64,000 bases of DNA from Candidatus Nomurabacteria bacterium. GTDB taxonomy: Bacteria; Patescibacteriota; Minisyncoccia; Phycocordibacterales; UBA9973. The stretch spans positions 19,816 to 83,815 of the forward strand of contig JACQGC010000004.1 in assembly GCA_016199805.1 (NCBI GenBank), read 5' to 3'. Made by a program: the position numbers and the translations under genes. Positions 3,285 to 63,378 of the stretch are shown piece after piece. The notes under the pieces were generated by a model. It saw only the letters and a program-made list of their open reading frames with translations. It was not told the DNA's origin and made no database searches. Numbering within the stretch: the first letter of the stretch is position 1; the number at the start of each line of letters is the position of its first letter.

Positions 3285-3707
3285 CTATTTTACTTCTATC
3301 CCCATACTTCGGGCGGAGCCGGCGATGATATTGATTATGCCTTCGTCGTCTTTGGCATTCAGGTCAACTAATTTTTTCTTTCCTATTTCCAGAGCTTGAG
3401 CTCGGGTGATTTTACCCACCTTGGTGGTGGCGTTCTTGCCGGAACCCTTTTCCACTCCAGCAGCCTTTAGAATAAGGCCCGTAGCGGGAGGAGTTTTGAC
3501 GACGAAATCATAGCTGCGGTCTTCGTAGACGGTAATAGACACACCGACTTTGTCTCCGGCCATCTTGGCGGTTGCAGCGTTAAACTTGGTGACGAAGTCA
3601 CCGATGTTTATACCGGCCTGTCCGAGGGCAGGACCGAGCGGGGGTGCCGGGGTTGCCTTGGCGGCTTGGATTTGTAATTTAATTTTTTTGGTTATTTTCT
3701 TTGCCAT
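3285..3707 (-). CDS. rplK: 50S ribosomal protein L11
   Basis: [16 protein letters not shown] and KTPPA motifs, length 140 aa, classical secE-nusG-rplK context. Confidence 0.95.
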
Positions 3708-3816
3708 CCCAGTACTAAAATTTTTATTAATAATTAACTAACTTAATCTATACTATTTTGTCCCATTTGTCTATTTTTCTTTATATTGCCTATGTAGAAA
3801 TTTAGTACGGGACAAG
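3708..3816 (-). promoter_or_regulatory. conserved bipartite upstream element (variant copy) abutting the rplK start codon
   Basis: CCCAGTACTAAAATTTTT immediately 3' of the start codon on the plus strand, and AAATTTAGTACGGGACAAG ~90 nt away; the arms are an imperfect inverted repeat. Confidence 0.5.
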
Positions 3817-3823
3817 TATGATT

Positions 3824-4369
3824 TTATATCTTTTTTATCTGTAAAAAGTCGAGTTCAACCGGAGTTTCACGACCGAACATTGAAACCAACACTTTTACTT
3901 TTCCTCGGTCTTGGTCTACGGAGTTTACCTTACCCTCCAGTTCCTTGAATGGACCATCGGTAATGCGAACCGTCTCACCAATCTCCATTTCGATATTATG
4001 TTTGGTGGTACCGGCATCCATCTTTTTGAAAAGATAATCCACTTCTTCCTTTTTGAGAGGCACCGGATTTACTCCCGCGCCGACGAAACCGGTCACTCTG
4101 GGAGTGTTTCTGACTACATACCAGGAATCATCCGTTACAATCATATCTACCAACACGTAGCCGGGATATATCTTTTCTTCCACTTCCACTCGCTTGCCAC
4201 CTTTTATCTTTATTTTCTTTTCAATCGGAACGATGACGTTGAAAATTTTGTCATTCATGCCAAGAGAGTCTATGCGCTGCTTCAAATTACGTAGAACAAC
4301 GTTCTCGTATCCGGCATAAGTGTGTATGGCGTACCAATTTCTAATTCCCTCGTTTTCTTGTTTTGACAT
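3824..4369 (-). CDS. nusG: transcription termination/antitermination factor NusG
   Basis: NGN domain start WYAIHTYAGYENVV and C-terminal KOW region; gene order secE-nusG-rplK. Confidence 0.95.
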   Translation of the reverse strand: MSKQENEGIRNWYAIHTYAGYENVVLRNLKQRIDSLGMNDKIFNVIVPIEKKIKIKGGKRVEVEEKIYPGYVLVDMIVTDDSWYVVRNTPRVTGFVGAGVNPVPLKKEEVDYLFKKMDAGTTKHNIEMEIGETVRITDGPFKELEGKVNSVDQDRGKVKVLVSMFGRETPVELDFLQIKKI

Positions 4370-4443
4370 CCCAGTACTAAAATTTTAATTAATAATGTTT
4401 ATCGTTATGCCCCGTAATCAAAAATTTAGTACGGGACAGGTTT
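4370..4443 (-). promoter_or_regulatory. conserved bipartite upstream element (canonical copy) abutting the nusG start codon
   Basis: cccagtactaaaattttaatt...cccgtaatcaaaaatttagtacgggacaggtt; near-identical at both ends to the copy upstream of tsaE. Confidence 0.55.
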
Positions 4444-4448
4444 GATTT

Positions 4449-4634
4449 TTAGCCTATGATTTTCTGCAAGACTTGTGAAAAAATAAAATCCCAAATCCCC
4501 AAGTAATAAGCTACTACTACGGACAAAACAATGACTATCAAAGTATAGTATAAAGTTTGGTTCCTGGTCGGCCAAATTACGTGTTTGAGTTCTGTTTTTG
4601 TCTCCTTAAAATACTCGGTTATTTTTGATCCCAT
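4449..4634 (-). CDS. secE: preprotein translocase subunit SecE
   Basis: 61 aa; KETKTELKHVIWPTR followed by a single TM helix; position upstream of nusG. Confidence 0.85.
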   Translation of the reverse strand: MGSKITEYFKETKTELKHVIWPTRNQTLYYTLIVIVLSVVVAYYLGIWDFIFSQVLQKIIG

Positions 4635-6294: not shown

Positions 6295-7371
6295 TTACAC
6301 AATATTGACTTCGGGCTTTAATTCCAGCCCAAATTTTTCTTTCACCGAGGCTATGATTTTATTGGCCAATTCGATGATTTCTTCACCTTTTGCGCCACCG
6401 TGGTTTACCAAAACCAAGGCTTGCTTGTCGTGCACGCCGACATTCCCCATCCTTCTCCCCTTCCAACCGCATTGCTCTATCAGCCATCCGGCTGGAATTT
6501 TGTACTGTATTTCCCCCCTCTCCTTCGCAAGGAGAGGGGTTGGGGGTGAGGTCATATTTTCTTCTTCAAAGTGTGGAATTTCCGGATATTTTTTTTTGAG
6601 TATTTCCAATTCTGTTTTCGTCACAAAAACATTTTTAAAAAAGCTTCCGGCGTTGCCTATTATTTTCGGGTCGGGTAGTTTGCTTCTGCGTATCTCTGCC
6701 ACAGCGTCGCTGATATTTTTAAGTGTTGTTGTTTTGTTGGTTTTTTCCAAATAATCAGACAGAATCTTGTAAGAAACGTTTGGCTTTGGTGTCTTGCTTA
6801 ATTTTAAAGTCACTGCCGAAATAAAATATTTTCCTTTCAATTTATTTTTAAAAACACTATCCCTATAGCCAAGTTCGCATTCTTCACAGCTAAAAATTTT
6901 TTTCTCTCCGCTCTCAATCTCAAAAGTTTCCACACTAAAAAGAGTATCTTTGAGTTCGGCTCCGTAGGCGCCAATGTTTTGCATCGGCGCCGCACCGACT
7001 GTACCCGGAATGAGAGACAAGTTTTCAATTCCCCAATATCCTTTATCTACGGCAAACAACACAAGACCATGCCAGCTTTCACCGCCCATCGCTCTAATAT
7101 AAACACACTCTTTCCCGACCCCTGTCGGGACCCCGACTTTGGTCGGGGCTATACCTTTTACTTTATTTAAAATAACTATACCGTCGAAATCTTTTGTAAA
7201 AAGAACATTACTTCCACCACCCAAAAATATTTTTTTGTTATTTTTAAATTCAGGCGTCGCCAAAAGTTCTTTCAAGTCTTCTTCTGAATTTAACTCGACA
7301 AAAAACTTGGCGTTTACAGAAATACCGAAAGTGTTTAATTTAAGCAGATTGTAATTATTTTCTAATATCAT
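6295..7371 (-). CDS. murB: UDP-N-acetylenolpyruvoylglucosamine reductase MurB
   Basis: LGGGSNVLF, GIENLSLIPGTVGAAPMQNIGAYG and GNAGSFFKN motifs; start taken at MILENNYN (the ORF-track N-terminus overlaps the upstream gene); contains an in-frame palindromic insertion. Confidence 0.9.
   Translation of the reverse strand: MILENNYNLLKLNTFGISVNAKFFVELNSEEDLKELLATPEFKNNKKIFLGGGSNVLFTKDFDGIVILNKVKGIAPTKVGVPTGVGKECVYIRAMGGESWHGLVLFAVDKGYWGIENLSLIPGTVGAAPMQNIGAYGAELKDTLFSVETFEIESGEKKIFSCEECELGYRDSVFKNKLKGKYFISAVTLKLSKTPKPNVSYKILSDYLEKTNKTTTLKNISDAVAEIRRSKLPDPKIIGNAGSFFKNVFVTKTELEILKKKYPEIPHFEEENMTSPPTPLLAKERGEIQYKIPAGWLIEQCGWKGRRMGNVGVHDKQALVLVNHGGAKGEEIIELANKIIASVKEKFGLELKPEVNIV
6511..6553. repeat. 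palindromic element copy inserted in-frame in murB
   Basis: cccccctctcc-ttcgcaa-ggagagggg followed by ttgggggtgaggt; translated in murB as MTSPPTPLLAKERGEI. Confidence 0.65.
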
Positions 7372-7372
7372 A

Positions 7373-8647
7373 TCAATGTCCCAATGTAAAAAACATCGCC
7401 ACTGCCGCTGCCCCCATAAGCACAAAAGTACCCCAGACTAGTATGTTTGATACATTACCACTCTTGTGTTCACCCATGATTTTTTCGTTCCTGGCTATCT
7501 TGCCGATTATAAAGATAAGTGGAACGGCGGCTACGCCATTGAATACAGCGGTATAAACCAAGGCTTTAATCGGGTCTATGCCAATGAAATTTATCATCAA
7601 GCCGACAATGGTGGCGATAGTGATGACTCCATAAAATCCATGAGCTTTTTTTAATTTCAAATTCAAACTTTCTTTCCAATTTAAAGTTTCGGCGACGGCA
7701 TAAGAAGCGGAAGCGGAAAGCACCGGCACGGCCAGGAGTCCGAGCCCGATGACTCCGACGGCAAAAATCAACTTGGCTAAAAATCCCGCATATGGAAATG
7801 TATGCACCAAGGGCTCCAGGGCTTTGGCCGCGTCCGCGGCGGTGGCGATATTGGTTATGCCATGAGTGTTTAGGACTGTGGCAGCAACGACGATGATACA
7901 CCATGTGGCTATTTCCGAAGACAGCATCCCGACAAAATTATCAATTCTAAGATTTTTGAGAAAAGATTTTGTAATATGTGTCTCGCCGTGTTTTAAGAGG
8001 TGCTTAGCTCGTTCTTCTTCCACTTCTTCGGACGCTTGCCAAAAAAACATATATGGGGAAATAGTCGTTCCGAAGACACCAGTAATGATAAAAAGAAAAG
8101 CAAAACTCAATTCAATATGCGGAATGAAGGTGGCTTTTAATATCGTCAACCAGGGTTGTTTGACTAAAAATAAAGTCAAAGGATAAGCGAGCAAAGAAAA
8201 AGCCAGCCATTTCAAAATCTTGGCATATTTTTTATAGGAGATAAATATTTCCAGTGACAAAATCAGGGCGGTAAAAAAAAGTGTCAGCACTGTCAGGTTG
8301 ATTGGCAAAACAAGCTGCGCGGCGGCCGCCATCGCCCCCAAATCTGCTCCGATATTGATCGTATTGGCTAAAACAATAAGGACGACTGCCGCATAAAGCA
8401 TTTTCTTGCTGTAATTTTCTTTAATCACGGCGGCAATTCCTTTGCCAGTTACCGCCCCGATTCTGGCGCAAGCCTCCTGAATGGCGGTCATAAACGGCAA
8501 TAGCAATAAAGCTGTCCAGAGTTGCCCATAACCAAATTGCGAACCGGTCTGCGAATAAGTGGCGATGCCCGAAGGGTCATCATCCGCCGCGCCGGTAATA
8601 ATCCCCGGCCCCAGTTTTTTCCAAAAGCTTTTTCTCATATATTTCAT
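7373..8647 (-). CDS. NRAMP-family divalent metal cation transporter (MntH-like)
   Basis: GPGIITGAADDDPSGIATYSQ N-terminal signature resembling the Nramp GPGxLxxxAxxDPGN motif; 11-12 TM helices. Confidence 0.65.
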   Translation of the reverse strand: MKYMRKSFWKKLGPGIITGAADDDPSGIATYSQTGSQFGYGQLWTALLLLPFMTAIQEACARIGAVTGKGIAAVIKENYSKKMLYAAVVLIVLANTINIGADLGAMAAAAQLVLPINLTVLTLFFTALILSLEIFISYKKYAKILKWLAFSLLAYPLTLFLVKQPWLTILKATFIPHIELSFAFLFIITGVFGTTISPYMFFWQASEEVEEERAKHLLKHGETHITKSFLKNLRIDNFVGMLSSEIATWCIIVVAATVLNTHGITNIATAADAAKALEPLVHTFPYAGFLAKLIFAVGVIGLGLLAVPVLSASASYAVAETLNWKESLNLKLKKAHGFYGVITIATIVGLMINFIGIDPIKALVYTAVFNGVAAVPLIFIIGKIARNEKIMGEHKSGNVSNILVWGTFVLMGAAAVAMFFTLGH

Positions 8648-11931: not shown

Positions 11932-12375
11932 TTATTTTAATTCCAAACTTCTGTGACCTTTTTCTTTATGCGAAATATAGATGTATCGGGCATTGGATGG
12001 GATAACACCTGAAACATTTTCCGGCCACTCAATGAAAACTATGTGTTCTTTATTGCCGATAATTTCTTCCCAACCCAGATGTAATAATTCTTTTTCATTT
12101 TTCAAACGATATGCATCAAAATGATATAAAAATTTATATTTTTTTGATTTAATCTTGTATTTTTTAAAAATAACAAAAGTCGGGCTTTTGATTTTATCTT
12201 TTAGGCCAAGGTGTTTGCCGACTGCTTGCGTAAAAGCCGTCTTGCCCGCGCCCAAATCTCCGGACAAGGCCACCACTAAAGCGCCTTTTTGCTTGGCGCT
12301 GGTTTTTAAAATTTTCTCCAGAAATATCTTGGCTATTTCCCCGGTTTCTTTGGTGTTTTTTGAAATCTTTTTCAT
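11932..12375 (-). CDS. tsaE: tRNA threonylcarbamoyladenosine biosynthesis protein TsaE
   Basis: P-loop ALSGDLGAGKTAFTQAVGK and PTFVIFKKY; adjacent to tsaC. Confidence 0.85.
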   Translation of the reverse strand: MKKISKNTKETGEIAKIFLEKILKTSAKQKGALVVALSGDLGAGKTAFTQAVGKHLGLKDKIKSPTFVIFKKYKIKSKKYKFLYHFDAYRLKNEKELLHLGWEEIIGNKEHIVFIEWPENVSGVIPSNARYIYISHKEKGHRSLELK

Positions 12376-12447
12376 CCCAGTACTAAAATTTTAATTTATA
12401 AACCCTATCTTTATTACCCGTAATCAAAAATTTAGTACGGGACAGGT
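12376..12447 (-). promoter_or_regulatory. conserved bipartite upstream element (canonical copy) abutting the tsaE start codon
   Basis: cccagtactaaaattttaattt...cccgtaatcaaaaatttagtacgggacaggtt; ends near-identical to the nusG copy. Confidence 0.55.
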
Positions 12448-12487
12448 TGCTTTCATATTAACATATTTTGGTGTATTATCTTAAGAC

Positions 12488-25922: not shown

Positions 25923-26717
25923 TTATTTTATCACTTTTTCAAACTCCTTCGGAATTTTAGATTCTATTTTTACTGTTTTGCCTTTCATATCTTTAAATTC
26001 TATGGATTTGGCATGCAGAAACATGCGGATTCCTTTTTTTTCCTCCCCTGCGAAGGGGAGGCGTAGGAGGGGTGAACTTTTTGGATTATAAAGCGCATCT
26101 CCCGCCACCGGATGATTTAAAAATTTCATATGCACGCGAATTTGATGTGTCCGACCGGTTTTTGGTTTTAGTTCCAAATAGGTAAATTTCCTCCCCTCCT
26201 TATTGAGGAGGGGCTTCGGGGTGGTGATTTCTAATCTCTTGAGTACTTTGTATTCCGTAATCGCCTCCCGCATCTCTCCCCTAGCGCCGCGACCTGCCAA
26301 GCGGCGGCGAAAATCCGAAGGACTGCGGCCAATGGGTTTGTTTATCACTCCGCGGTCTTCTTTTACCCAACCGTCTACAATAGCTACATAAGTTTTTTTA
26401 ATATCTCTGCCCATAAATTGATTTTTTAAAAACTCATGCGCTTTTTGGTTTTTTGCCAAAAGCATTACTCCGGAAGTTCCGCGGTCCAGTCTGTGAACAA
26501 TGCCCGGCCGGTCTATTTCCCCCATCGGCTCCCCTACACCTTTCATTTTCGGATAATTTTTGATTATCCAACTAGTGATAAAAGTTTCTTTTTTTTTGCC
26601 ATCAGCGCCTGCCCCGTAGTGAGCTTGCTCTACTGCGGGGTGCACAGAAATGCCCCAAGGCTTTTCAATGGCCAAAATGTCTTTATCTTCGTATAAAACT
26701 TTGATTTTCATATGCAT
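25923..26717 (-). CDS. RluA-family pseudouridine synthase
   Basis: PGIVHRLDRGTSGVMLLAKN catalytic motif; carries two in-frame palindromic-element insertions. Confidence 0.85.
   Translation of the reverse strand: MHMKIKVLYEDKDILAIEKPWGISVHPAVEQAHYGAGADGKKKETFITSWIIKNYPKMKGVGEPMGEIDRPGIVHRLDRGTSGVMLLAKNQKAHEFLKNQFMGRDIKKTYVAIVDGWVKEDRGVINKPIGRSPSDFRRRLAGRGARGEMREAITEYKVLKRLEITTPKPLLNKEGRKFTYLELKPKTGRTHQIRVHMKFLNHPVAGDALYNPKSSPLLRLPFAGEEKKGIRMFLHAKSIEFKDMKGKTVKIESKIPKEFEKVIK
26038..26076. repeat. palindromic element copy inserted in-frame in the RluA-family gene
   Basis: cctcccct-gcga-aggggagg followed by aggaggggtgaac; encodes ..SSPLLRLPFAGEEKKG.. Confidence 0.6.
26189..26228. repeat. second palindromic element copy inserted in-frame in the RluA-family gene
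   Basis: cccctcct-tattg-aggagggg followed by cttcggggtggtga; encodes ..TPKPLLNKEGRKF.. Confidence 0.6.
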
Positions 26718-31992: not shown

Positions 31993-32337
31993 TTATTTTG
32001 CCCGTGCGCCAGCCGGAATTTCATTATTTGGCTCAAGTAAAGAAAATTTACCGTCTTCTGTAGAAACGGCTAGTATCATCCCCTGGCTTTCAATTCCCCG
32101 AATCATCCTGGGTTCCAAATTGGCGACAAACATGCATTTTTTACCCACTAAAACGGAGCAATCGGGAAAATACAAAGAAATTCCGGAAACAATTGTTCGT
32201 GGAGTGGCTTCACCCAAATCAACCGAGAGTTTCAAAAGCTTGTCTGTCTCCGGAACTTTTTCCGCCGACAAAATCTTCCCCACGGCGATATCTATTTTTT
32301 TAAAATCTTCTAATGTAATCATAAATACATTATACAC
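31993..32337 (-). CDS. tRNA-binding domain protein (CsaA/EMAP-like)
   Basis: DIAVGKILSAEKVPETDKLLKLSVDLGE...IVSGIS typical OB-fold tRNA-binding domain. Confidence 0.65.
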   Translation of the reverse strand: MYNVFMITLEDFKKIDIAVGKILSAEKVPETDKLLKLSVDLGEATPRTIVSGISLYFPDCSVLVGKKCMFVANLEPRMIRGIESQGMILAVSTEDGKFSLLEPNNEIPAGARAK

Positions 32338-32406
32338 CTCACCCCTTTCCCCTCTCCATTTTCTTAAAATGGAGAGGGGTGGCTCGCTTGCGAGACGGGG
32401 TGAGGT
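32336..32406. repeat. full-length intergenic palindromic element (reference copy)
   Basis: ACCTCACCCC-ttt-CCCCTCTCCATTTT-ctta-AAAATGGAGAGGGG-tgg-CTCGC-ttg-CGAG-ac-GGGGTGAGGT; nested inverted repeats. Confidence 0.7.
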
Positions 32407-32843
32407 TAATGGTTATTAATTTTATCAAGATAACGTTGCAATATCAAAGCCGCCGCGGAGGCGTCTATACGGCCGGACTTTATTTGCTTCACCCGGCTAT
32501 GCGAGTGGGAAGGACTCAAATCATTTTTGCTATTCCCTGCTTTGCGCGCTTCTACTGAAGTCAAAAATTCTTTTTGTTTATGAATGGGTAAATTGAATTT
32601 CTCCTGCAACTCCAAAATAAAAACTTCAATCCGTCCCGACAAAGCATTCAACTTCCCAGAAAAATCGATTGATTCCCCGATGACTATTTCTTTTATATTT
32701 TCTTTTTTGATTATCTCGGCAAACTTTTTAAGAACGTTTGCATCGTTCAAAACAATCTCCTTAGGAAAAGCCAAGGTGTGATTTTCGTCCGAAATAGCCA
32801 CCCCAATCCGCTTTGTGCCGTAATCAATGCCTAAAAATCTCAT
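32406..32843 (-). CDS. ruvX: Holliday junction resolvase-like protein RuvX/YqgF
   Basis: MRFLGIDYGTKRIGVAISD N-terminus, ~145 aa. Confidence 0.85.
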   Translation of the reverse strand: MRFLGIDYGTKRIGVAISDENHTLAFPKEIVLNDANVLKKFAEIIKKENIKEIVIGESIDFSGKLNALSGRIEVFILELQEKFNLPIHKQKEFLTSVEARKAGNSKNDLSPSHSHSRVKQIKSGRIDASAAALILQRYLDKINNH

Positions 32844-50394: not shown

Positions 50395-50482
50395 TTTCCT
50401 CTCCTTTCCATGAGATGGTTAGGGTGAGGTTGTTCCCCTCGCCAGTACTATGGAGAGGGGTTGGGGGTGAGGTTTTAGTGAT
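50395..50482. repeat. composite intergenic palindromic element
   Basis: cctctcc..ggttagggtgaggttg..cccctc-gccagtactatg-gagagggg-ttgggggtgaggtttt. Confidence 0.6.
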
Positions 50483-54598: not shown

Positions 54599-54640
54599 GA
54601 ACCTCACCCCTGCCCCTCTCCTTGTTAAGGAGAGGGGTTT
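54599..54640. repeat. intergenic palindromic element (left-arm variant)
   Basis: aacctcacccc-tg-cccctctcctt-gtta-aggagagggg-tt. Confidence 0.65.
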
Positions 54641-55229: not shown

Positions 55230-55266
55230 CTTCCCTCTCATTCCAGGAGAGGGCTAGGGTGAGGTT
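55230..55266. repeat. intergenic palindromic element (right-arm variant)
   Basis: ccctctc-attccag-gagaggg-ctagggtgaggtt. Confidence 0.6.
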
Positions 55267-56111
55267 GGAAAAAAGTAATTTTTTATGCCTGTAGCGGTTA
55301 GAGATGCCATGTCTTTATACGATTGTTTGCGGGCTGCGGAGGTGCGGAATTTCTTTTCGTAGATGTAGCTGTATTCTATGAGGACGGAACGCACTTTGGC
55401 ATCCAGCGTACCGTTGGAGCCTATGGCAATGAGTTTCTGGTCAGGTGTCAATCCGCCCACTTCGGGCGGGTATGTGCTCGAGGCATATTTTTTACGCAAC
55501 TGCGTATATATGTCTGCCGCCAAACCCGTGCTCTCTTTGGAGTTGGCCAGCTGACCATCTGGGTAATAAACGACGAAACCTTTATATTTACCAATAGTCC
55601 AAGCGTCCGGCCGCGGATAATCATTGAAGTGAACATGAATCATGGCGTCAATTTTGTTTTCGTCCGCCCATTTATTAAACCCGTATAGCCGCAGCGCCAC
55701 ATCTTCCGAGGCTCTGTTGTGCGGAGCATTTTCTTTGGGAATAAAATCCCCGCTAATAATTTTGTCTTGAACTATTTTTTTAGCAGCTTGTTCAAAAGCC
55801 AGAATGGCATCTTTTTGACTTTCAAAATCAGAGAAATTTTTCGTGTATCCATTGCTGTCTCGGGTTATGTACACATCAAACCGCTTGTCTCTTTTTAGAA
55901 TGTTATAAATCTGGGTAGCCAAAGCCAAAGTCATCGTCGCCTCTTTCATATTGCCATATTGCGCTCCCCAGACTTCACTGTCATGCCCCGGCACCAACAG
56001 AATCTTTACAGGTTTTGGTGTTACAACCTTTGTTTTTGCGGCGTAAATAGGGAAAATAGGGGTAAAAAGCGAAAGGAAAAGCAATAAAATTGAGATTTTT
56101 TTAATTATCAT
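55254..56111 (-). CDS. secreted cell-wall amidase-like protein (Amidase_3-like, tentative)
   Basis: Signal peptide; LLVPGHDSE..DVYITRD..IDAMIHVHFND loosely matches the N-acetylmuramoyl-L-alanine amidase pattern. Confidence 0.4.
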   Translation of the reverse strand: MIIKKISILLLFLSLFTPIFPIYAAKTKVVTPKPVKILLVPGHDSEVWGAQYGNMKEATMTLALATQIYNILKRDKRFDVYITRDSNGYTKNFSDFESQKDAILAFEQAAKKIVQDKIISGDFIPKENAPHNRASEDVALRLYGFNKWADENKIDAMIHVHFNDYPRPDAWTIGKYKGFVVYYPDGQLANSKESTGLAADIYTQLRKKYASSTYPPEVGGLTPDQKLIAIGSNGTLDAKVRSVLIEYSYIYEKKFRTSAARKQSYKDMASLTATGIKNYFFPTSP

Positions 56112-56125
56112 AGTATCATTGTAAC

Positions 56126-57046
56126 ATGCCAGAATTACCAGAAGTAGAAAATCTTAGAATGGGCTTAGCTAAGAACATTCTAAATCAAAAAATCCTTAGT
56201 GTGGAAATCGGAAAACCGAAACTCGTTTCGGGTAAAGGAACCCTGCGAAAAATTTCCACAAAAAAGAAAACGCAATTTATAAAGGGCGTCGTGGGTGAAA
56301 AGTTTATCGGCGTAGAACGCCGGGCCAAAAATCTCATTTTTAAACTGACTCACGGAAAAATTCTTATCGCCCATCTGAAGATGTCGGGGCAATTCGTTTA
56401 TCAAAAAAAGAATGGGCAGAACGCCATTATTGGCGGGCACCCCATAGAACTTTCCGAAACCAAACTGCCAAACAAACATTCGCATATTATCTTTAAATTA
56501 AGTAATGGGGTTTTGTATTACAACGACACCAGAATGTTTGGCTATGTTCTTTACTACTCCGACCTAAAAACATTTGAAGCGGAAAACCATTTCGCTATGT
56601 ATGGGGTAGAACCACTATCCAAAGAATTCACCCCTAAGTATTTTTTTGAATCGCTGAAAAATAAAAAAGGCCGCGCCAAAGGACGGACAGGCAAGATAAA
56701 AGCGTTGCTGATGGACCAAAAAATAGTGACCGGTCTCGGAAATATATATGCGGATGAAAGTTTGTTTGAAGCCAAAATACGCCCGGACAGGCAGGCTATG
56801 AGTATCTCAAGCAAAGAAACGACCAGACTACACAAGGCCATAATCCGCATCATAAAAAGAGCCATAAAAGTAGGCGGTTCATCGGTGGCGACCTATCGCC
56901 TGCTCGACAACACTCGGGGCAATTATGCCAGAGAACATAAAGTATACGGCAAAGACGGAGAAAAGTGTCAAAATTGCAAAAAACCACTTACAAAAACGAT
57001 AGTCGCCGGCAGAACGACAATTTTCTGTCCAAGCTGTCAAAGATAG
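56126..57046 (+). CDS. mutM: formamidopyrimidine-DNA glycosylase (Fpg/MutM)
   Basis: MPELPEVE N-terminus; C-terminal zinc finger CQNCKKPL...FCPSCQ. Confidence 0.9.
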   Translation: MPELPEVENLRMGLAKNILNQKILSVEIGKPKLVSGKGTLRKISTKKKTQFIKGVVGEKFIGVERRAKNLIFKLTHGKILIAHLKMSGQFVYQKKNGQNAIIGGHPIELSETKLPNKHSHIIFKLSNGVLYYNDTRMFGYVLYYSDLKTFEAENHFAMYGVEPLSKEFTPKYFFESLKNKKGRAKGRTGKIKALLMDQKIVTGLGNIYADESLFEAKIRPDRQAMSISSKETTRLHKAIIRIIKRAIKVGGSSVATYRLLDNTRGNYAREHKVYGKDGEKCQNCKKPLTKTIVAGRTTIFCPSCQR

Positions 57047-59429: not shown

Positions 59430-60701
59430 CTAAATCAAGAAGTTTCTATTCCTTAGATTTTTGTGATACGCTATCGCGAATCTGTGCGCTTCGCTGTTTG
59501 ATAGCAGGATTTCTCTTTTATATTTTTTAGTAAATTCGCTCGCTCCGAGAATGTCTTTGGGTTTGTGTTTTTCGTCTTTCAATACTGCCACCACGGGGAT
59601 TTTTAGGCCAAGTTTTTTCAAGACAGACATTCCTGCGTGCAGCTGCGCCACTCCGCCATCCACAACAATCAGGTTCGGATACTGCCACTCCGTATGCGCC
59701 AGGCGCCTTTCCAGCACTTCTGTGAGCGCGCCCGTGTCGTTGGCATTATTTTGCGTTCTGATTTTGAATTTTTTATATTCATTCTTTGCCACTTCCCCAT
59801 CTTCTACCACTGTCATCACGCCCACCATATTTTTTCCTCCCATGTGCGCTATGTCATAAGATTCTATTCTAGCGAATGAAACAGGAAAATTTTTATCCGT
59901 GTGGGACCCACCTCGTACTCGAGGAAGGGAGGAGCGGGAAAAATTTTCCTGTTTCAGGAGCGCCACATCATTTATGTGCTGCAAGGCAAACATTTGCCTT
60001 TTTATTTCTCCCGCTTTTTCAAATTCACGAGCCTTCGCATAATCTTTCATTTCTTTTTTTAGATTTTGCAAAATTTGCTGTTTTTTGCCGGAAAAAAATA
60101 ATTTTATATTCCGAATATTCTGCATATACAGTTTTCTGTCTTTTAAATCCGGCACCAGATTTATTTGTTTGTAAAATTCTAGATAATTTTTACTTTTGTC
60201 ATCCAGGAAGGGAAAAATCCGGCGAATAATTTTCATCGCCTCGCGAAGCTGTGGCCCACTGGTATAAGGCCCATATATTTTGTTAAACACCGAGTGTTTA
60301 ACATTTCTACCTCGCACAACAATTACTCTAGGTAATTCCTCCCCGCCTGCTCCCGAACCATCGTGAGGGCGGGCAGGTTTGGTTATGCAAACATAATTAA
60401 AACTTTTATCATCTTTTTCCCTGGTGTTGTAATAAGGTTGATGTTTCTTAATCAGTTGCGCCTCTAAAATGAGGGCTTCGAGAACACTATCCGTCTCTTG
60501 CCAATCTATTTTATCCGCCTTGTAAACCATATCCACTAAAAGCGGACCCCTGGTCTCAATCAAATCTTTTGAAAAATAACTTTTTGTGCGGTCTTTGAGT
60601 GAAGTGGCTTTGCCGATATAGAGAATTTGCTTCTTGTGCTTAAAGAAATAAACCCCTGGCTTGTCTGGAAGTTTTGATTTTTTATGATATTTGATATCCA
60701 T
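59430..60701 (-). CDS. uvrC: excinuclease ABC subunit C (UvrC), compact form
   Basis: GIY-YIG N-terminus LPDKPGVYFF..ILYIGKATSLKDRTKSYF; position adjacent to uvrA. Confidence 0.7.
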   Translation of the reverse strand: MDIKYHKKSKLPDKPGVYFFKHKKQILYIGKATSLKDRTKSYFSKDLIETRGPLLVDMVYKADKIDWQETDSVLEALILEAQLIKKHQPYYNTREKDDKSFNYVCITKPARPHDGSGAGGEELPRVIVVRGRNVKHSVFNKIYGPYTSGPQLREAMKIIRRIFPFLDDKSKNYLEFYKQINLVPDLKDRKLYMQNIRNIKLFFSGKKQQILQNLKKEMKDYAKAREFEKAGEIKRQMFALQHINDVALLKQENFSRSSLPRVRGGSHTDKNFPVSFARIESYDIAHMGGKNMVGVMTVVEDGEVAKNEYKKFKIRTQNNANDTGALTEVLERRLAHTEWQYPNLIVVDGGVAQLHAGMSVLKKLGLKIPVVAVLKDEKHKPKDILGASEFTKKYKREILLSNSEAHRFAIAYHKNLRNRNFLI

Positions 60702-60702
60702 T

Positions 60703-63378
60703 TTATTTTCTTAGTACTTTTTTGAGATATTTGCCAGTATAACTTTTTGCATTGTTTGCCACCTCCTCCGGTGTGCCCTTAGCCACGATATTTCCGCCAT
60801 TCACTCCCCCTTCCGGCCCTATATCTATTATATAATCCGAACTCTTCACGATGTCCAGGTTGTGTTCTATCAGCACCACAGTGTTGCCGTGCGACACGAG
60901 CTTGTTTAAAACCTCCAGAAGTTTGTGCACATCATCATAGTGCAAGCCAACCGTCGGCTCGTCTAAAAGATAAATCGTTTTCTCGGTGTGCGGACGATAC
61001 AGCTCGCTAGATATTTTTACGCGTTGCGCTTCTCCTCCAGAGAGAGTCGTAGCAGATTGGCCGAGCTCCACATAACCCAAGCCCACATCGAGCAAGGTTT
61101 GCAGCCGGTCGGAAACCGCCGGAATATCTTTAAAAAAGGTCAGGCCTTCTTCCACAGTCATATGCAACACTTCATAAATATTTTTCTTTTTGTATTTTAT
61201 CGTCAGAGTTTCCTTATCAAATCTTTTTCCGCCACACACGTCGCAGGTTACATAAACGGTTGGTAAGAAATGCATCTCCACAGCAATTTCTCCGTTGCCT
61301 TCGCAGGCCTCACAGCGTCCGCCTTTTACGTTGAAAGAAAAGCGGTTGGATTTCCAGCCACGTAGCCGCGCTTCTTCAGTTGTAGCGAAAAGATCACGAA
61401 TGTGGGTGAAAGCGCCTGTGTAAGTCGCAATGTTTGAACGCGGCGTGCGGCCGATGGGGCTCTGGTCTATCAAAATCACCCGGGAAATATATTCCGTGCC
61501 GGAAAAAGACGAACAATTAAAAACTTGTGCCGTGCGATATTTGCGTTCCAGTCGCCCCTGGAGATTTTTATAAAGAATTTCGTACATGAACGAACTCTTG
61601 CCCGAACCGGAAACACCGGTGATGGAGGTCATCACGCCGAGGGGCACTTCCACATTCATATTGTTTATATTGAAAACTTTTCCACCCGTGACCCTTAGCA
61701 CCCCTTTCGCCTGCCGTCTCTTTTTGGGAATTTCTATTTTTATTTCATCACGCAGGTAAGCCAGGGTTCTCGAATTGTTTGTATTTTTCTTGGCAGTCAA
61801 TAAATCTTCCAAATAGCCCGACACAATTACTTCTCCGCCGTGCACTCCCGCCTTGGGACCGATGTCCACTATAAAATCCGAAGCGTAAATAGTGTCTTCG
61901 TCATGCTCCACGATTATTATCGTATTTCCCAAATCACGCAGGTTTTGTAAGGTTTTTATCAGGCGGTCGTTGTCCCGTTGATGTAGGCCAATCGTCGGTT
62001 CATCCAGCACATACAATGCGCCTACGAGCCTGGAGCCGAGTTGTGAAGCCAGGCGAATGCGTTGCGCCTCCCCGCCAGAGAGCGTATTGGCTTTACGGGA
62101 GAGTTGTAAATAGTCCAAACCGACATCGAGCATGAACTGCAAGCGCGCTTCTATTTCTTTGACGATAGGCACGGAAATTTCTTTCTCTTGTTCGGAAAGT
62201 TTTAGATTTTTGAAAAAATCATGCGCGTCTTTGATGGAAAGAGAAGATAAATCCAGAATATTTATTTTTTTATGCGACGCTTCTAAAAATACGTTCAGCG
62301 CCTCGGGTCGTAAACGCGCGCCATGACATGCCTCGCAGGGTTCATCGCCCATGAAATATTTCGAACCGAGGCCGTTACAGGCCGGGCAAGCGCCGTAAGG
62401 AGAATTGAAGGAAAATAATCTTGGCTCCACTTCCGGAAAAGAAAAACCGTCGTTCTTGCAGGCAAACTTGGCGGACATGATAAATTCATCATCACCTATT
62501 TTTATAGCCACTAGGCCGTCGGACTCAATCAAGGCCCGCTCTATGGCTTCCGCCAGACGCATCCGGCTGCCGTCTTTGTTGTCGGAAAATTCATGCACCG
62601 CAAAATGATCCACCAAAATATCTATGTTGTGGGCTTTGTTTTTGGAAAGAGTGATTTGCTCGCGTAATTTTTTCATCACTCCATCCAGACGGATTTCAGC
62701 AAAACCTTTGCCAAGTAAATCATAAAGCAATTGGTAATATTCCCCTTTGCGTCCGCGGACCACTGGAGAAAAAATACTGATTTCGGTATTATCCCATTCC
62801 ACGCCCATGACTTTGCGCTTGCCCTCTCCTCCTTTCGGAGGAGGAGTGCCCTTTAGGGCGAGGTGGTTCTTTTTAGAATTACCACCCCCTGCCCCCTCCT
62901 TAATCAAGGAGGGGAGGGTAAAATCTTTCACTTTCCCCAACACAAAATTCAAAATTTCTTCATTAGAAAGTTTTTTGATTTCCTCGCCACAAAGCGGACA
63001 GTGCGGGTGCCCGATGCGGGCATACATCACCCGTAGGTAATCATAAATCTCGGTAATCGTCGCCACTGTGGATCGCGGGTTATTGGAGCGGGATTTTTGG
63101 TCAATGGAAATCGCCGGCGATAAACCGGTGATTTCATCCACGTCCGGCTTGGGCATTTGATTCAAAAATTGCCGCGCGTAAGAAGACAGAGACTCCACAT
63201 ATCGCCTCTGCCCTTCGGCAAAAATGGTATCAAAAGCGAGCGAACTCTTTCCGGACCCGGAAACCCCGGTGATGACCACCATTTTATTGCGTGGCATCTC
63301 CACATCAATATTCTTCAAATTGTGTGTCCTAGCCCCTTTTATTGTTATTTTATCTATGTTTTTATCAAGTTTTGTCAT
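60703..63378 (-). CDS. uvrA: excinuclease ABC subunit A (UvrA)
   Basis: Duplicated ABC ATPase with GVSGSGKSS Walker A motifs, zinc fingers ([21 protein letters not shown]), 891 aa; carries an in-frame palindromic insertion. Confidence 0.95.
62821..62918. repeat. composite palindromic element inserted in-frame in uvrA
   Basis: ctctcctcc-tttc-ggaggagg .. tagggcgaggtgg .. ccccctcctt-aatc-aaggagggg; encodes [31 protein letters not shown]. Confidence 0.65.

Follow-up and report, generated by a model that had tools for sequence, protein, structure and literature searches.

The window, by which we mean the whole 64-kb stretch of a Candidatus Nomurabacteria contig that was analysed here (all positions are counted within it), contains a uvrA gene carrying a palindromic doublet of ~97 nt in-frame (Table 1). 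According to the open reading frame (ORF) translation, the doublet contributes ~30 Gly/Pro/Lys-rich residues to the 891-aa UvrA. In-frame elements are also present in murB, in an rluD-like pseudouridine synthase gene and in uvrC within the window, and in uvrB of a related contig (L057); their absence from orthologues or homologues was established for uvrA, murB and the rluD-like gene. The two perfect hairpins and their in-frame position in uvrA agree with a preliminary description of this DNA, which had also translated the encoded peptide exactly.

Each half of the doublet consists of a hairpin with a 5′ arm of C and T only and a 3′ arm of G and A only, followed by a G-rich tail. In the coding direction unit A comes first (with its tail, CTCCCCTCCTT-GATT-AAGGAGGGG-GCA-GGGGGTGGT), then the centre AATTCTAAAAAGAA, and then the reverse complement of unit B, which gives a tail-to-tail inverted doublet. 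On its own strand unit B is laid out as CTCCTCCT-TTCGG-AGGAGGAG-T-GCCCTTTAGGGC-GAGGTGG. The linker between the two main hairpins, noted previously as a spacer, is indeed present, but its 46 nt are not plain spacer, as they hold the small GCCC-TTTA-GGGC hairpin, the paired tails and the AT-rich centre TTCTTTTTAGAATT. The two G-rich tails base-pair with each other (GGTGGT/ACCACC), forming a central stem around this centre.

The doublet folds as single-stranded DNA at -31.6 kcal/mol (z = -5.4), a value equalled by none of 200 shuffles. For the mRNA strand the fold reaches -56.7 kcal/mol (z = -4.3), and the minimum-free-energy structure joins the two halves in one long compound hairpin. Five matches to GGAGRGG-N0-12-GGGYGAGG were counted in the window, with 0 expected. 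At the gathering threshold Rfam found only tRNAs in the whole window, and in E-value mode the hits for the region 62760-62960 and for one cyanobacterial copy did not exceed chance level (DUF1874, the best of them, reached 22 bits where the cutoff is 42).

Alignment to solved structures places the insert in the UvrB-binding domain, one of the two locations that had been guessed beforehand (the other was the insertion domain). UvrA residues 100-147 correspond to 113-160 of 2r6f (Geobacillus UvrA) and residues 196-340 to its 164-303, leaving residues 148-195 (48 aa) opposite 161-163 in the 2r6f chain and 160-165 in that of 9gxk. As proposed earlier, the repeat-derived segment thus has no counterpart in canonical UvrA, where three to six residues stand in its place. 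In the crystallised UvrB-interaction domain, 3fpn, the corresponding point is directly upstream of residue 18, and the alignments locate the insert in the loop that leads from the first helix of the UvrB-binding domain to its first strand; this domain is listed among the UvrA-specific modules (PMC7835731). In an AlphaFold2 (AF2) model of residues 118-305, the predicted local distance difference test (pLDDT) was 62-78 for the core and below 50 for residues 154-195, which are almost without secondary structure; a full-length model with 63 close orthologues had a pLDDT of 39.5 and is usable as a hint at most. These predictions are weakly consistent with a disordered insert loop. The UvrA of this clade is also without the whole insertion domain (~115 aa; residues 340/341 align to 305/421 of 9gxk), which normally contacts DNA (PMC7835731), and the Cys pairs of its Zn module 2 are only ~8 residues apart.

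The site is highly variable among close relatives, in which UvrA ranges from 859 to 939 aa. We compared 121 aligned UvrA orthologues, 85-100% identical, from Candidatus Nomurabacteria/Paceibacteria of the Candidate Phyla Radiation (CPR). The site is empty in 54, holds this type of doublet (LPSLxKEGxGGGNSK..GTPPxKGGE) in 20, an unrelated element with terminal inverted repeats (TIRs; KKNFSGLTLPGVPGGTHTVQNSSS) in 36 and the canonical unit described below (SPSPSQGEGRGEV) in four; seven fall in none of these classes. On a neighbour-joining tree of 833 flanking columns these states are interspersed, and the nearest relatives of the query show all four, namely the doublet (P0003), the other element (P0004 and P0008), the canonical unit (P0005) and the empty site (P0109). 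With so many orthologues empty, and unrelated elements interspersed at the same codon position, the comparison indicates that the segment is an insertion and not ancestral UvrA sequence. Rather than being conserved in relatives that lack the repeat family, the segment is missing from about half of the close orthologues, and others carry different elements. An exact-protein look-up with UvrA gave no match.

DNA from 80 metagenome contigs allowed the alleles themselves to be compared. Filled and empty alleles are cleanly distinct in the DNA alignment, and all 77 readable alleles are in-frame and stop-free, which argues that the insert is translated rather than removed. The doublet stands at the uvrA site in at least eight contigs, in-frame in every one. 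Decay by indels and by partial deletion is seen in individual alleles: L022 has unit A alone, while L002 keeps the doublet DNA with two compensating indels, its centre reading PPRPSG as against NHLALKG in the window. Since L002 keeps the DNA and shifts the central peptide, the alleles indicate that it is the DNA, not the peptide, that is conserved, and that an open frame is the sole visible constraint at the protein level. Further insertion hot spots were seen in the UvrA of relatives at query positions ~295, 368 and 530 (peptides NPEGKQDKNTASYGAGK, HSPLLRGEKKGG and SPRPDLGANSKKQKSLGLASGG), and a PEGK..SYGAGK peptide also occurs in N-terminal extensions of UvrA, which correspond to intergenic DNA upstream of the gene.

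The doublet is a repeat in its own right. A 4-kb stretch of contig L057, whose UvrA is 73% identical, contains the same ~95-nt doublet three times, once at the uvrA site and twice in uvrB (coding for FPSLKKEGVGGGNSKSHHLTLMGTPPRQGGED and SPILVEEGEGGGDSKLPPRPLGTPPLKGGDE), each time with an AATTC(T/A)AAA centre. Within the window a single type-A unit lies in-frame in the rluD-like gene, where it adds 13 aa that fall in a gap of the alignment with PDB homologues. As the centre is found again in both L057 copies within uvrB and in this single unit, it is, on the evidence of these copies, element sequence and not host sequence. Some copies have accumulated stem mismatches, e.g. L001, L012 and L057 at 527.

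Other families of small palindromic elements are present as well. The uvrC gene of the window contains an 80-bp element with TIRs, the family of which is the occupant of the uvrA hot spot in the 36 orthologues mentioned above. A peptide akin to that of a second uvrC hairpin, KPARPHKKAGGD, is found at the uvrA hot spot of L077. The UvrC product has only 423 aa and its PDB alignment stops at the endonuclease domain, so that the protein seems to lack the C-terminal (HhH)2 domain.

A more widespread relative, which we refer to as the canonical unit, has the form CTCCCCTCTCC-loop-GGAGAGGGG-TT-GGGGGTGAGGT and is ~40 nt long. A copy in murB is in-frame; the insert is missing from PDB MurB and from most of 120 orthologues, which have a base length of 336-337 aa but range from 336 to 399 aa, with varied repeat-derived inserts at the same position. 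An independent Logan assembly holds an identical murB. MurB has another small hot spot, ~15 residues downstream of the insert and beside ..EQCG/WKG.., and 17 of 121 aligned sequences have P(RQ/EK/A)GGASW-type inserts of 6-20 aa there. Further units in the window are intergenic, and one of these supplies an amidase gene with its stop codon. A profile of 85 canonical copies (nhmmer) recovered, besides the murB copy, 50446-50473 (E = 4e-7) and 54613-54639 (E = 8e-5). The uvrA and canonical units have a common layout of hairpin, 2-3 nt and then GGGGGTG(A)GGT, while their arms (CCCCTCC vs CCCCTCTCC) and tails (GGGGGTGGT vs GGGGGTGAGGT) differ. The uvrA doublet had been said to mirror the intergenic composite at 50395-50482; this did not hold, as the intergenic copy (50398-50473) consists of tandem units on one strand, with a degenerate first hairpin, so that the two have the kind of unit in common but not the architecture.

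We are fairly confident that the segment is a repeat, selfish or neutral in nature, that was inserted in-frame into uvrA. The presence/absence polymorphism, the recurrence of the doublet, its place in the protein, the hot spot used by several families and the kept frame are established by the comparisons above. A ~97-nt doublet of two related 40-nt units, tails inward, would have been copied into the gene, and would persist provided that the frame was kept, that no stop lay in the frame used and that the site was tolerant. The landing site would be a Lys-rich hypervariable surface loop, from which the ~30 Gly/Pro/Lys-rich residues may loop out, being translated and not removed. Copies would then decay by indels, compensating frameshifts included, and by partial deletion, and would give way to further small palindromic elements at that hot spot. 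We infer that the insert is most likely neutral or selfish and not a functional module of UvrA.

Several observations weigh against this account or parts of it. Three independent genic doublets all have the same orientation and outer reading frame, which could point to selection at the peptide level. Relative to the UvrA of Bacillus and Thermotoga, every 'empty' allele in this clade still has an excess of ~15 Lys-rich residues, and L028 contains AATTCTAAAAA, so that some 'empty' sites may be what a deletion left behind, and on some branches the change could be either a gain or a loss. Both AF2 models are of low confidence. The canonical profile matched the uvrA unit with a non-significant E of 5.6, and for this reason the doublet is best treated as a diverged subfamily and not a canonical member, its tie to the canonical family being one of shared architecture and partial identity. 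No transposase (Y1 or other) was found among the 30 window proteins scanned with Pfam. No target-site duplication or conserved target motif was found at the junctions when filled and empty alleles and the L057 copies were compared, and the left flanks of copies differ (TTTTAC, GAAAAG, TTTAAG, GGTAAA, GAGTTA and GCATTTT). Neither GTAG/CTAC nor CGTC/GACG was found beside a stem on either strand of 62815-62925.

Alternatively, the host might have evolved the segment as a functional addition to the UvrB-binding domain, such as a flexible arm contacting DNA or UvrB, kept by selection on the protein and with the palindrome incidental. The shared orientation and outer frame of the genic doublets would fit this, the loop is Lys-rich in empty alleles too, and compensation for the DNA-contacting insertion domain that this clade is without is conceivable. 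However, the 54 close orthologues without the segment, the unrelated sequences at the site in others, and the shift in frame of the central peptide between alleles that keep the DNA all argue against such a role, as do the same DNA in uvrB, the single unit in the rluD-like gene and the predicted disorder of the segment, and we regard it as quite unlikely. It is unlikely, though somewhat less so, that two single units inserted independently on either side of pre-existing host NSKK codons. L022 has unit A alone, N(S/T)KK is frequent in empty alleles (as well as the AATTCTAAAAA of L028) and lone units exist in murB and the rluD-like gene. Yet the same doublet with the same centre at three L057 sites, two of them in uvrB, argues for insertion in one piece; the rluD single unit also terminates in GATTTCTAA, which makes the centre part of the element, and the L022 allele can be derived from that of L002 by one deletion between A-runs.

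Selection might also act on the hairpins as a cis-element, for example as an attenuator or terminator, or as an RNA stability, protein-binding or supercoiling site. The mRNA-strand structure is very stable, as given above, intergenic copies sit at gene 3′ ends (ruvX, ruvA/amidase) as REP sequences do, and AAGGAGG and CCTCCTT lie within the arms. Against this, half of the orthologues are without the element, no U-tract follows the hairpins, no Rfam family matches and the stems of some copies hold the mismatches noted above, which together make such a function very unlikely. Short palindromic repeats can mislead short-read assemblers, but a repeat-induced chimera, a collapsed repeat or another assembly or binning artefact is almost certainly not the source of the segment: an independent Logan assembly has a 100%-identical protein, insert included (P0001), and the same doublet is carried by JGI contig L001 and at least seven other contigs, at the same codon position and always in-frame. 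Readings of the segment as an intein, an intron or a translational bypass were rejected because of its insufficient size, the absence of splicing motifs and a frame that is kept, without stops, in all cases.

In-frame insertion of this general type is already known, even in uvrA, the nearest precedents being Rickettsia palindromic elements and the REP dimers inside genes, the latter described from uvrA of other phyla. Repetitive extragenic palindromic (REP) sequences occur inside ORFs as singlets and dimers, the dimers coding for 20-30 aa, and among the genes in which they are reported are uvrA (in Opitutus terrae and in Thioalkalivibrio), uvrB (in R. conorii) and genes for pseudouridine synthases (Di Nocera et al. 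2013, PMC3733652). REPs are stem-loops of 20-40 nt with an unpaired end, often in inverted (head-to-head or tail-to-tail) or tandem (head-to-tail) dimers (PMC3733652). The units described here fall within the REP size range (20-40 nt, 6-13 bp stem), those in uvrA, murB and rluD having stems of 8-11 bp and loops of 3-7 nt, and REP ends can provide stop codons as the window unit does at 55254. REP superfamilies, however, are defined by an unpaired GTAG or CGTC tetranucleotide at one end (PMC3733652), whereas the present units have in its place a G-rich tail of 9-13 nt (GGGGGTGAGGT or GGGGGTGGT). They also differ in stems that are strictly polypyrimidine vs polypurine, in a CPR/Patescibacteria host and in a single codon position that is a hot spot for several unrelated element families.

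An in-frame position in housekeeping genes is the hallmark of the Rickettsia palindromic elements (RPEs; Ogata et al. 2000, via the review PMC10969869). They resemble the present case as selfish palindromes inserted, with the frame kept, into unrelated housekeeping genes within a reduced genome, with added peptides that the review presents as judged compatible with the protein fold (PMC10969869). RPEs as described there are ~100-150 bp and Rickettsia-specific, unlike the ~40-nt unit here, with related units across many phyla. Host phylum, unit size and sequence differ, a sequence relation is not expected, and membership of RPE-1 to RPE-10 is not claimed. MITEs (miniature transposable elements with inverted repeats), such as ERIC, QMITE1 and those of Anabaena (PMC10969869), are likewise small non-autonomous repeats with occasional in-frame fusions to host ORFs. 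This class fits the 80-bp uvrC element with its 18-nt perfect TIRs, whereas the ends of the uvrA doublet are only loosely inverted (CTCCCCTCC... / ...GGAGGAGAGGG), with no clear TIR apart from the dyad symmetry of the whole, and show no target-site duplication.

REPINs, in which an inverted doublet of short palindromes with a spacer is the replicating entity and is predicted to fold as a long hairpin in single-stranded DNA or mRNA (Bertels & Rainey 2011, PMC3116915), are comparable in that the doublet itself recurs here, at three L057 loci and at the uvrA site of the contigs counted above. They are, however, extragenic and tied to a RAYT (REP-associated tyrosine transposase) gene (PMC3116915), whereas our doublet is intragenic and no RAYT match was found among the 30 window proteins. 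Elements derived from IS200/IS605 insert 3′ of a fixed 4-5-nt target without duplication; the lack of a duplication here would be consistent with that, but the left flanks of the copies vary. The REPIN-like inverted doublet and the match to REP tail-to-tail dimers suggest, by analogy, copying by single-strand hairpin transposition with a tyrosine (RAYT/IS200-like) transposase acting in trans, as has been proposed for REPINs, a mechanism that we put forward tentatively as a possibility short of being probable. The missing tag, the lack of a fixed target or duplication and the negative transposase scan of the 30 window proteins count against it. New in comparison with these systems are the CPR host lineage, the untagged type of unit bearing a G-rich tail, the single hot spot at which several families turn over rapidly, and the base-perfect conservation of a core across phyla, of which no description was found in a literature search.

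This last feature concerns the canonical unit. Its exact 22-mer core, GGAGAGGGGTTGGGGGTGAGGT, is present in at least 120 genome contigs, from cultured isolates as well as metagenome-assembled genomes, and in at least seven phyla (Cyanobacteria, Bacteroidota, Chloroflexota, Patescibacteria, Armatimonadota, Fibrobacterota and Alphaproteobacteria). The same hairpin-plus-tail layout, with the CTCCCCTCTCC arm preceding the 22-mer, is seen in ~102 of the 125 occurrences listed. Among these 125, 28 long ORFs spanning the unit were counted, covering 25 distinct copies or about one in five, although some of these ORFs are spurious (two frames over a single copy, or a frame running on across a tandem array). 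By eye, some of the spanning ORFs show motifs characteristic of essential genes, putatively those for LeuRS, AspRS, DNA ligase (LigA) and Dus. Cyanobacterial copies sit within a longer module starting with AACCTCACCCCG, and L093 has a tandem array of the unit with a 39-nt period. The cross-phylum consensus starts with CT and finishes with ...GGGGGTGAGGT, with no other fixed upstream motif. The 22-mer and a 16-mer had no match in the full text of papers, and nothing relevant was found in the literature on CPR/Patescibacteria with palindromic in-frame repeats.

That the canonical unit and variants such as the uvrA doublet make up a single widespread, undescribed class of ultra-small mobile elements is a possible but rather doubtful proposition. 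If true, it would imply either that trans-acting machinery is conserved or that horizontal transfer is frequent, and it would be a general way of remodelling surface loops in core proteins, in Nomurabacteria at hot spots with fast turnover. The base-exact conservation of the core across phyla could indicate an undescribed mobilisation system.

The window has further features of note. Fpg/MutM has an N-terminal domain of 141 residues, compared with a profile of 117 positions, which suggests that this protein holds another insert of ~24 aa. A conserved motif of ~80-100 nt, ..CATCCCAGTACTAAAATTTTAATTAATAAT...AAAAATTTAGTACGGGACAGGTT with an inverted GTACTAAA/TTTAGTAC pair, lies directly upstream of the rplK, nusG and tsaE starts and may be a shared promoter or leader. 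Two large repeat proteins are encoded, one of 990 aa with five 250-nt internal repeats, and one of 848 aa with six 69-nt Cys-rich repeats (QxCQDPxAxNYxGxLPCTY).

Table 1. Elements, genes and other features of the window, with the uvrA doublet and its parts first.
Feature	Position	Strand	Details
uvrA (host gene)	60703..63378	minus	891-aa ORF; phmmer against PDB, E = 0 to UvrA structures 9gxk, 2r6f and 3pih
Palindromic doublet, ~97 nt	62822..62918	minus	In-frame in uvrA; tail-to-tail dimer of two hairpin-plus-tail units
Unit A	62881..62918	minus	Hairpin CCCCTCCTT-GATT-AAGGAGGGG, then GCA-GGGGGTGGT (coding strand); arms 62893-62901 / 62906-62914, 9 bp, perfect; top-strand loop AATC
AT-rich centre	62867..62880		Coding strand AATTCTAAAAAGAA, codes NSKK
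Unit B	62822..62866	plus	Hairpin CTCCTCCT-TTCGG-AGGAGGAG, arms 62826-62833 / 62839-62846, 8 bp, perfect; small hairpin GCCC-TTTA-GGGC, 62848-62859; tail TAGGGCGAGGTGG, 62854-62866
Single type-A unit	26191..26234	plus	In-frame in rluD-like gene, codes EITTPKPLLNKEGR; arms 26193-26200 / 26206-26213, then CTTC-GGGGTGGT-GATTTCTAA
rluD-like pseudouridine synthase gene	25923..26717	minus	
80-bp element in uvrC	59877..59956	minus	18-nt perfect TIRs TGAAACAGGAAAATTTTT / AAAAATTTTCCTGTTTCA, inner hairpins; in-frame, codes KQENFSRSSLPRVRGGSHTDKNFPVS
Second uvrC hairpin	60338..60377	minus	CCTCCCCGCC / GGCGGGCAGG, 20-nt loop; in-frame, codes KPARPHDGSGAGGEE
UvrC	59430-60701		
Canonical unit in murB	6513..6552	plus	CCCCTCTCCTT-CGC-AAGGAGAGGGG-TTGGGGGTGAGGT; in-frame, codes TSPPTPLLAKERGE; profile hidden Markov model E = 2e-10
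murB	6295..7374	minus	
Intergenic long form	32336..32407	minus	AACCTCACCCCG + small hairpin + main hairpin + GGGGTGAGGT; begins at ruvX stop codon
Intergenic tandem composite	50398..50473	plus	Two head-to-tail units; first hairpin degenerate
Intergenic canonical unit	54601..54637	minus	Upstream of ruvA
Unit between convergent ruvA and amidase gene	55231..55265	plus	Tail gives amidase stop codon and last residues (PTSP*)
Amidase ORF	55254..56111	minus	
Fpg/MutM	56126-57046		
Motif upstream of rplK, nusG, tsaE	3680-3825, 4342-4449, 12348-12455	minus	
Repeat protein, 990 aa	34721-37693		
Repeat protein, 848 aa	40616-43162		

Tiny palindromic repeats thus colonise essential genes in-frame in the CPR as well, a phenomenon best known so far from Rickettsia and from scattered REP cases. 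In these reduced genomes much of the length variation of conserved proteins (859-939 aa in UvrA, 336-399 aa in MurB) is attributed to such inserts. They inflate the seeming novelty of proteins in CPR genomes and disrupt alignments and structure prediction, and at the same time they flag surface loops that are tolerant of insertion.

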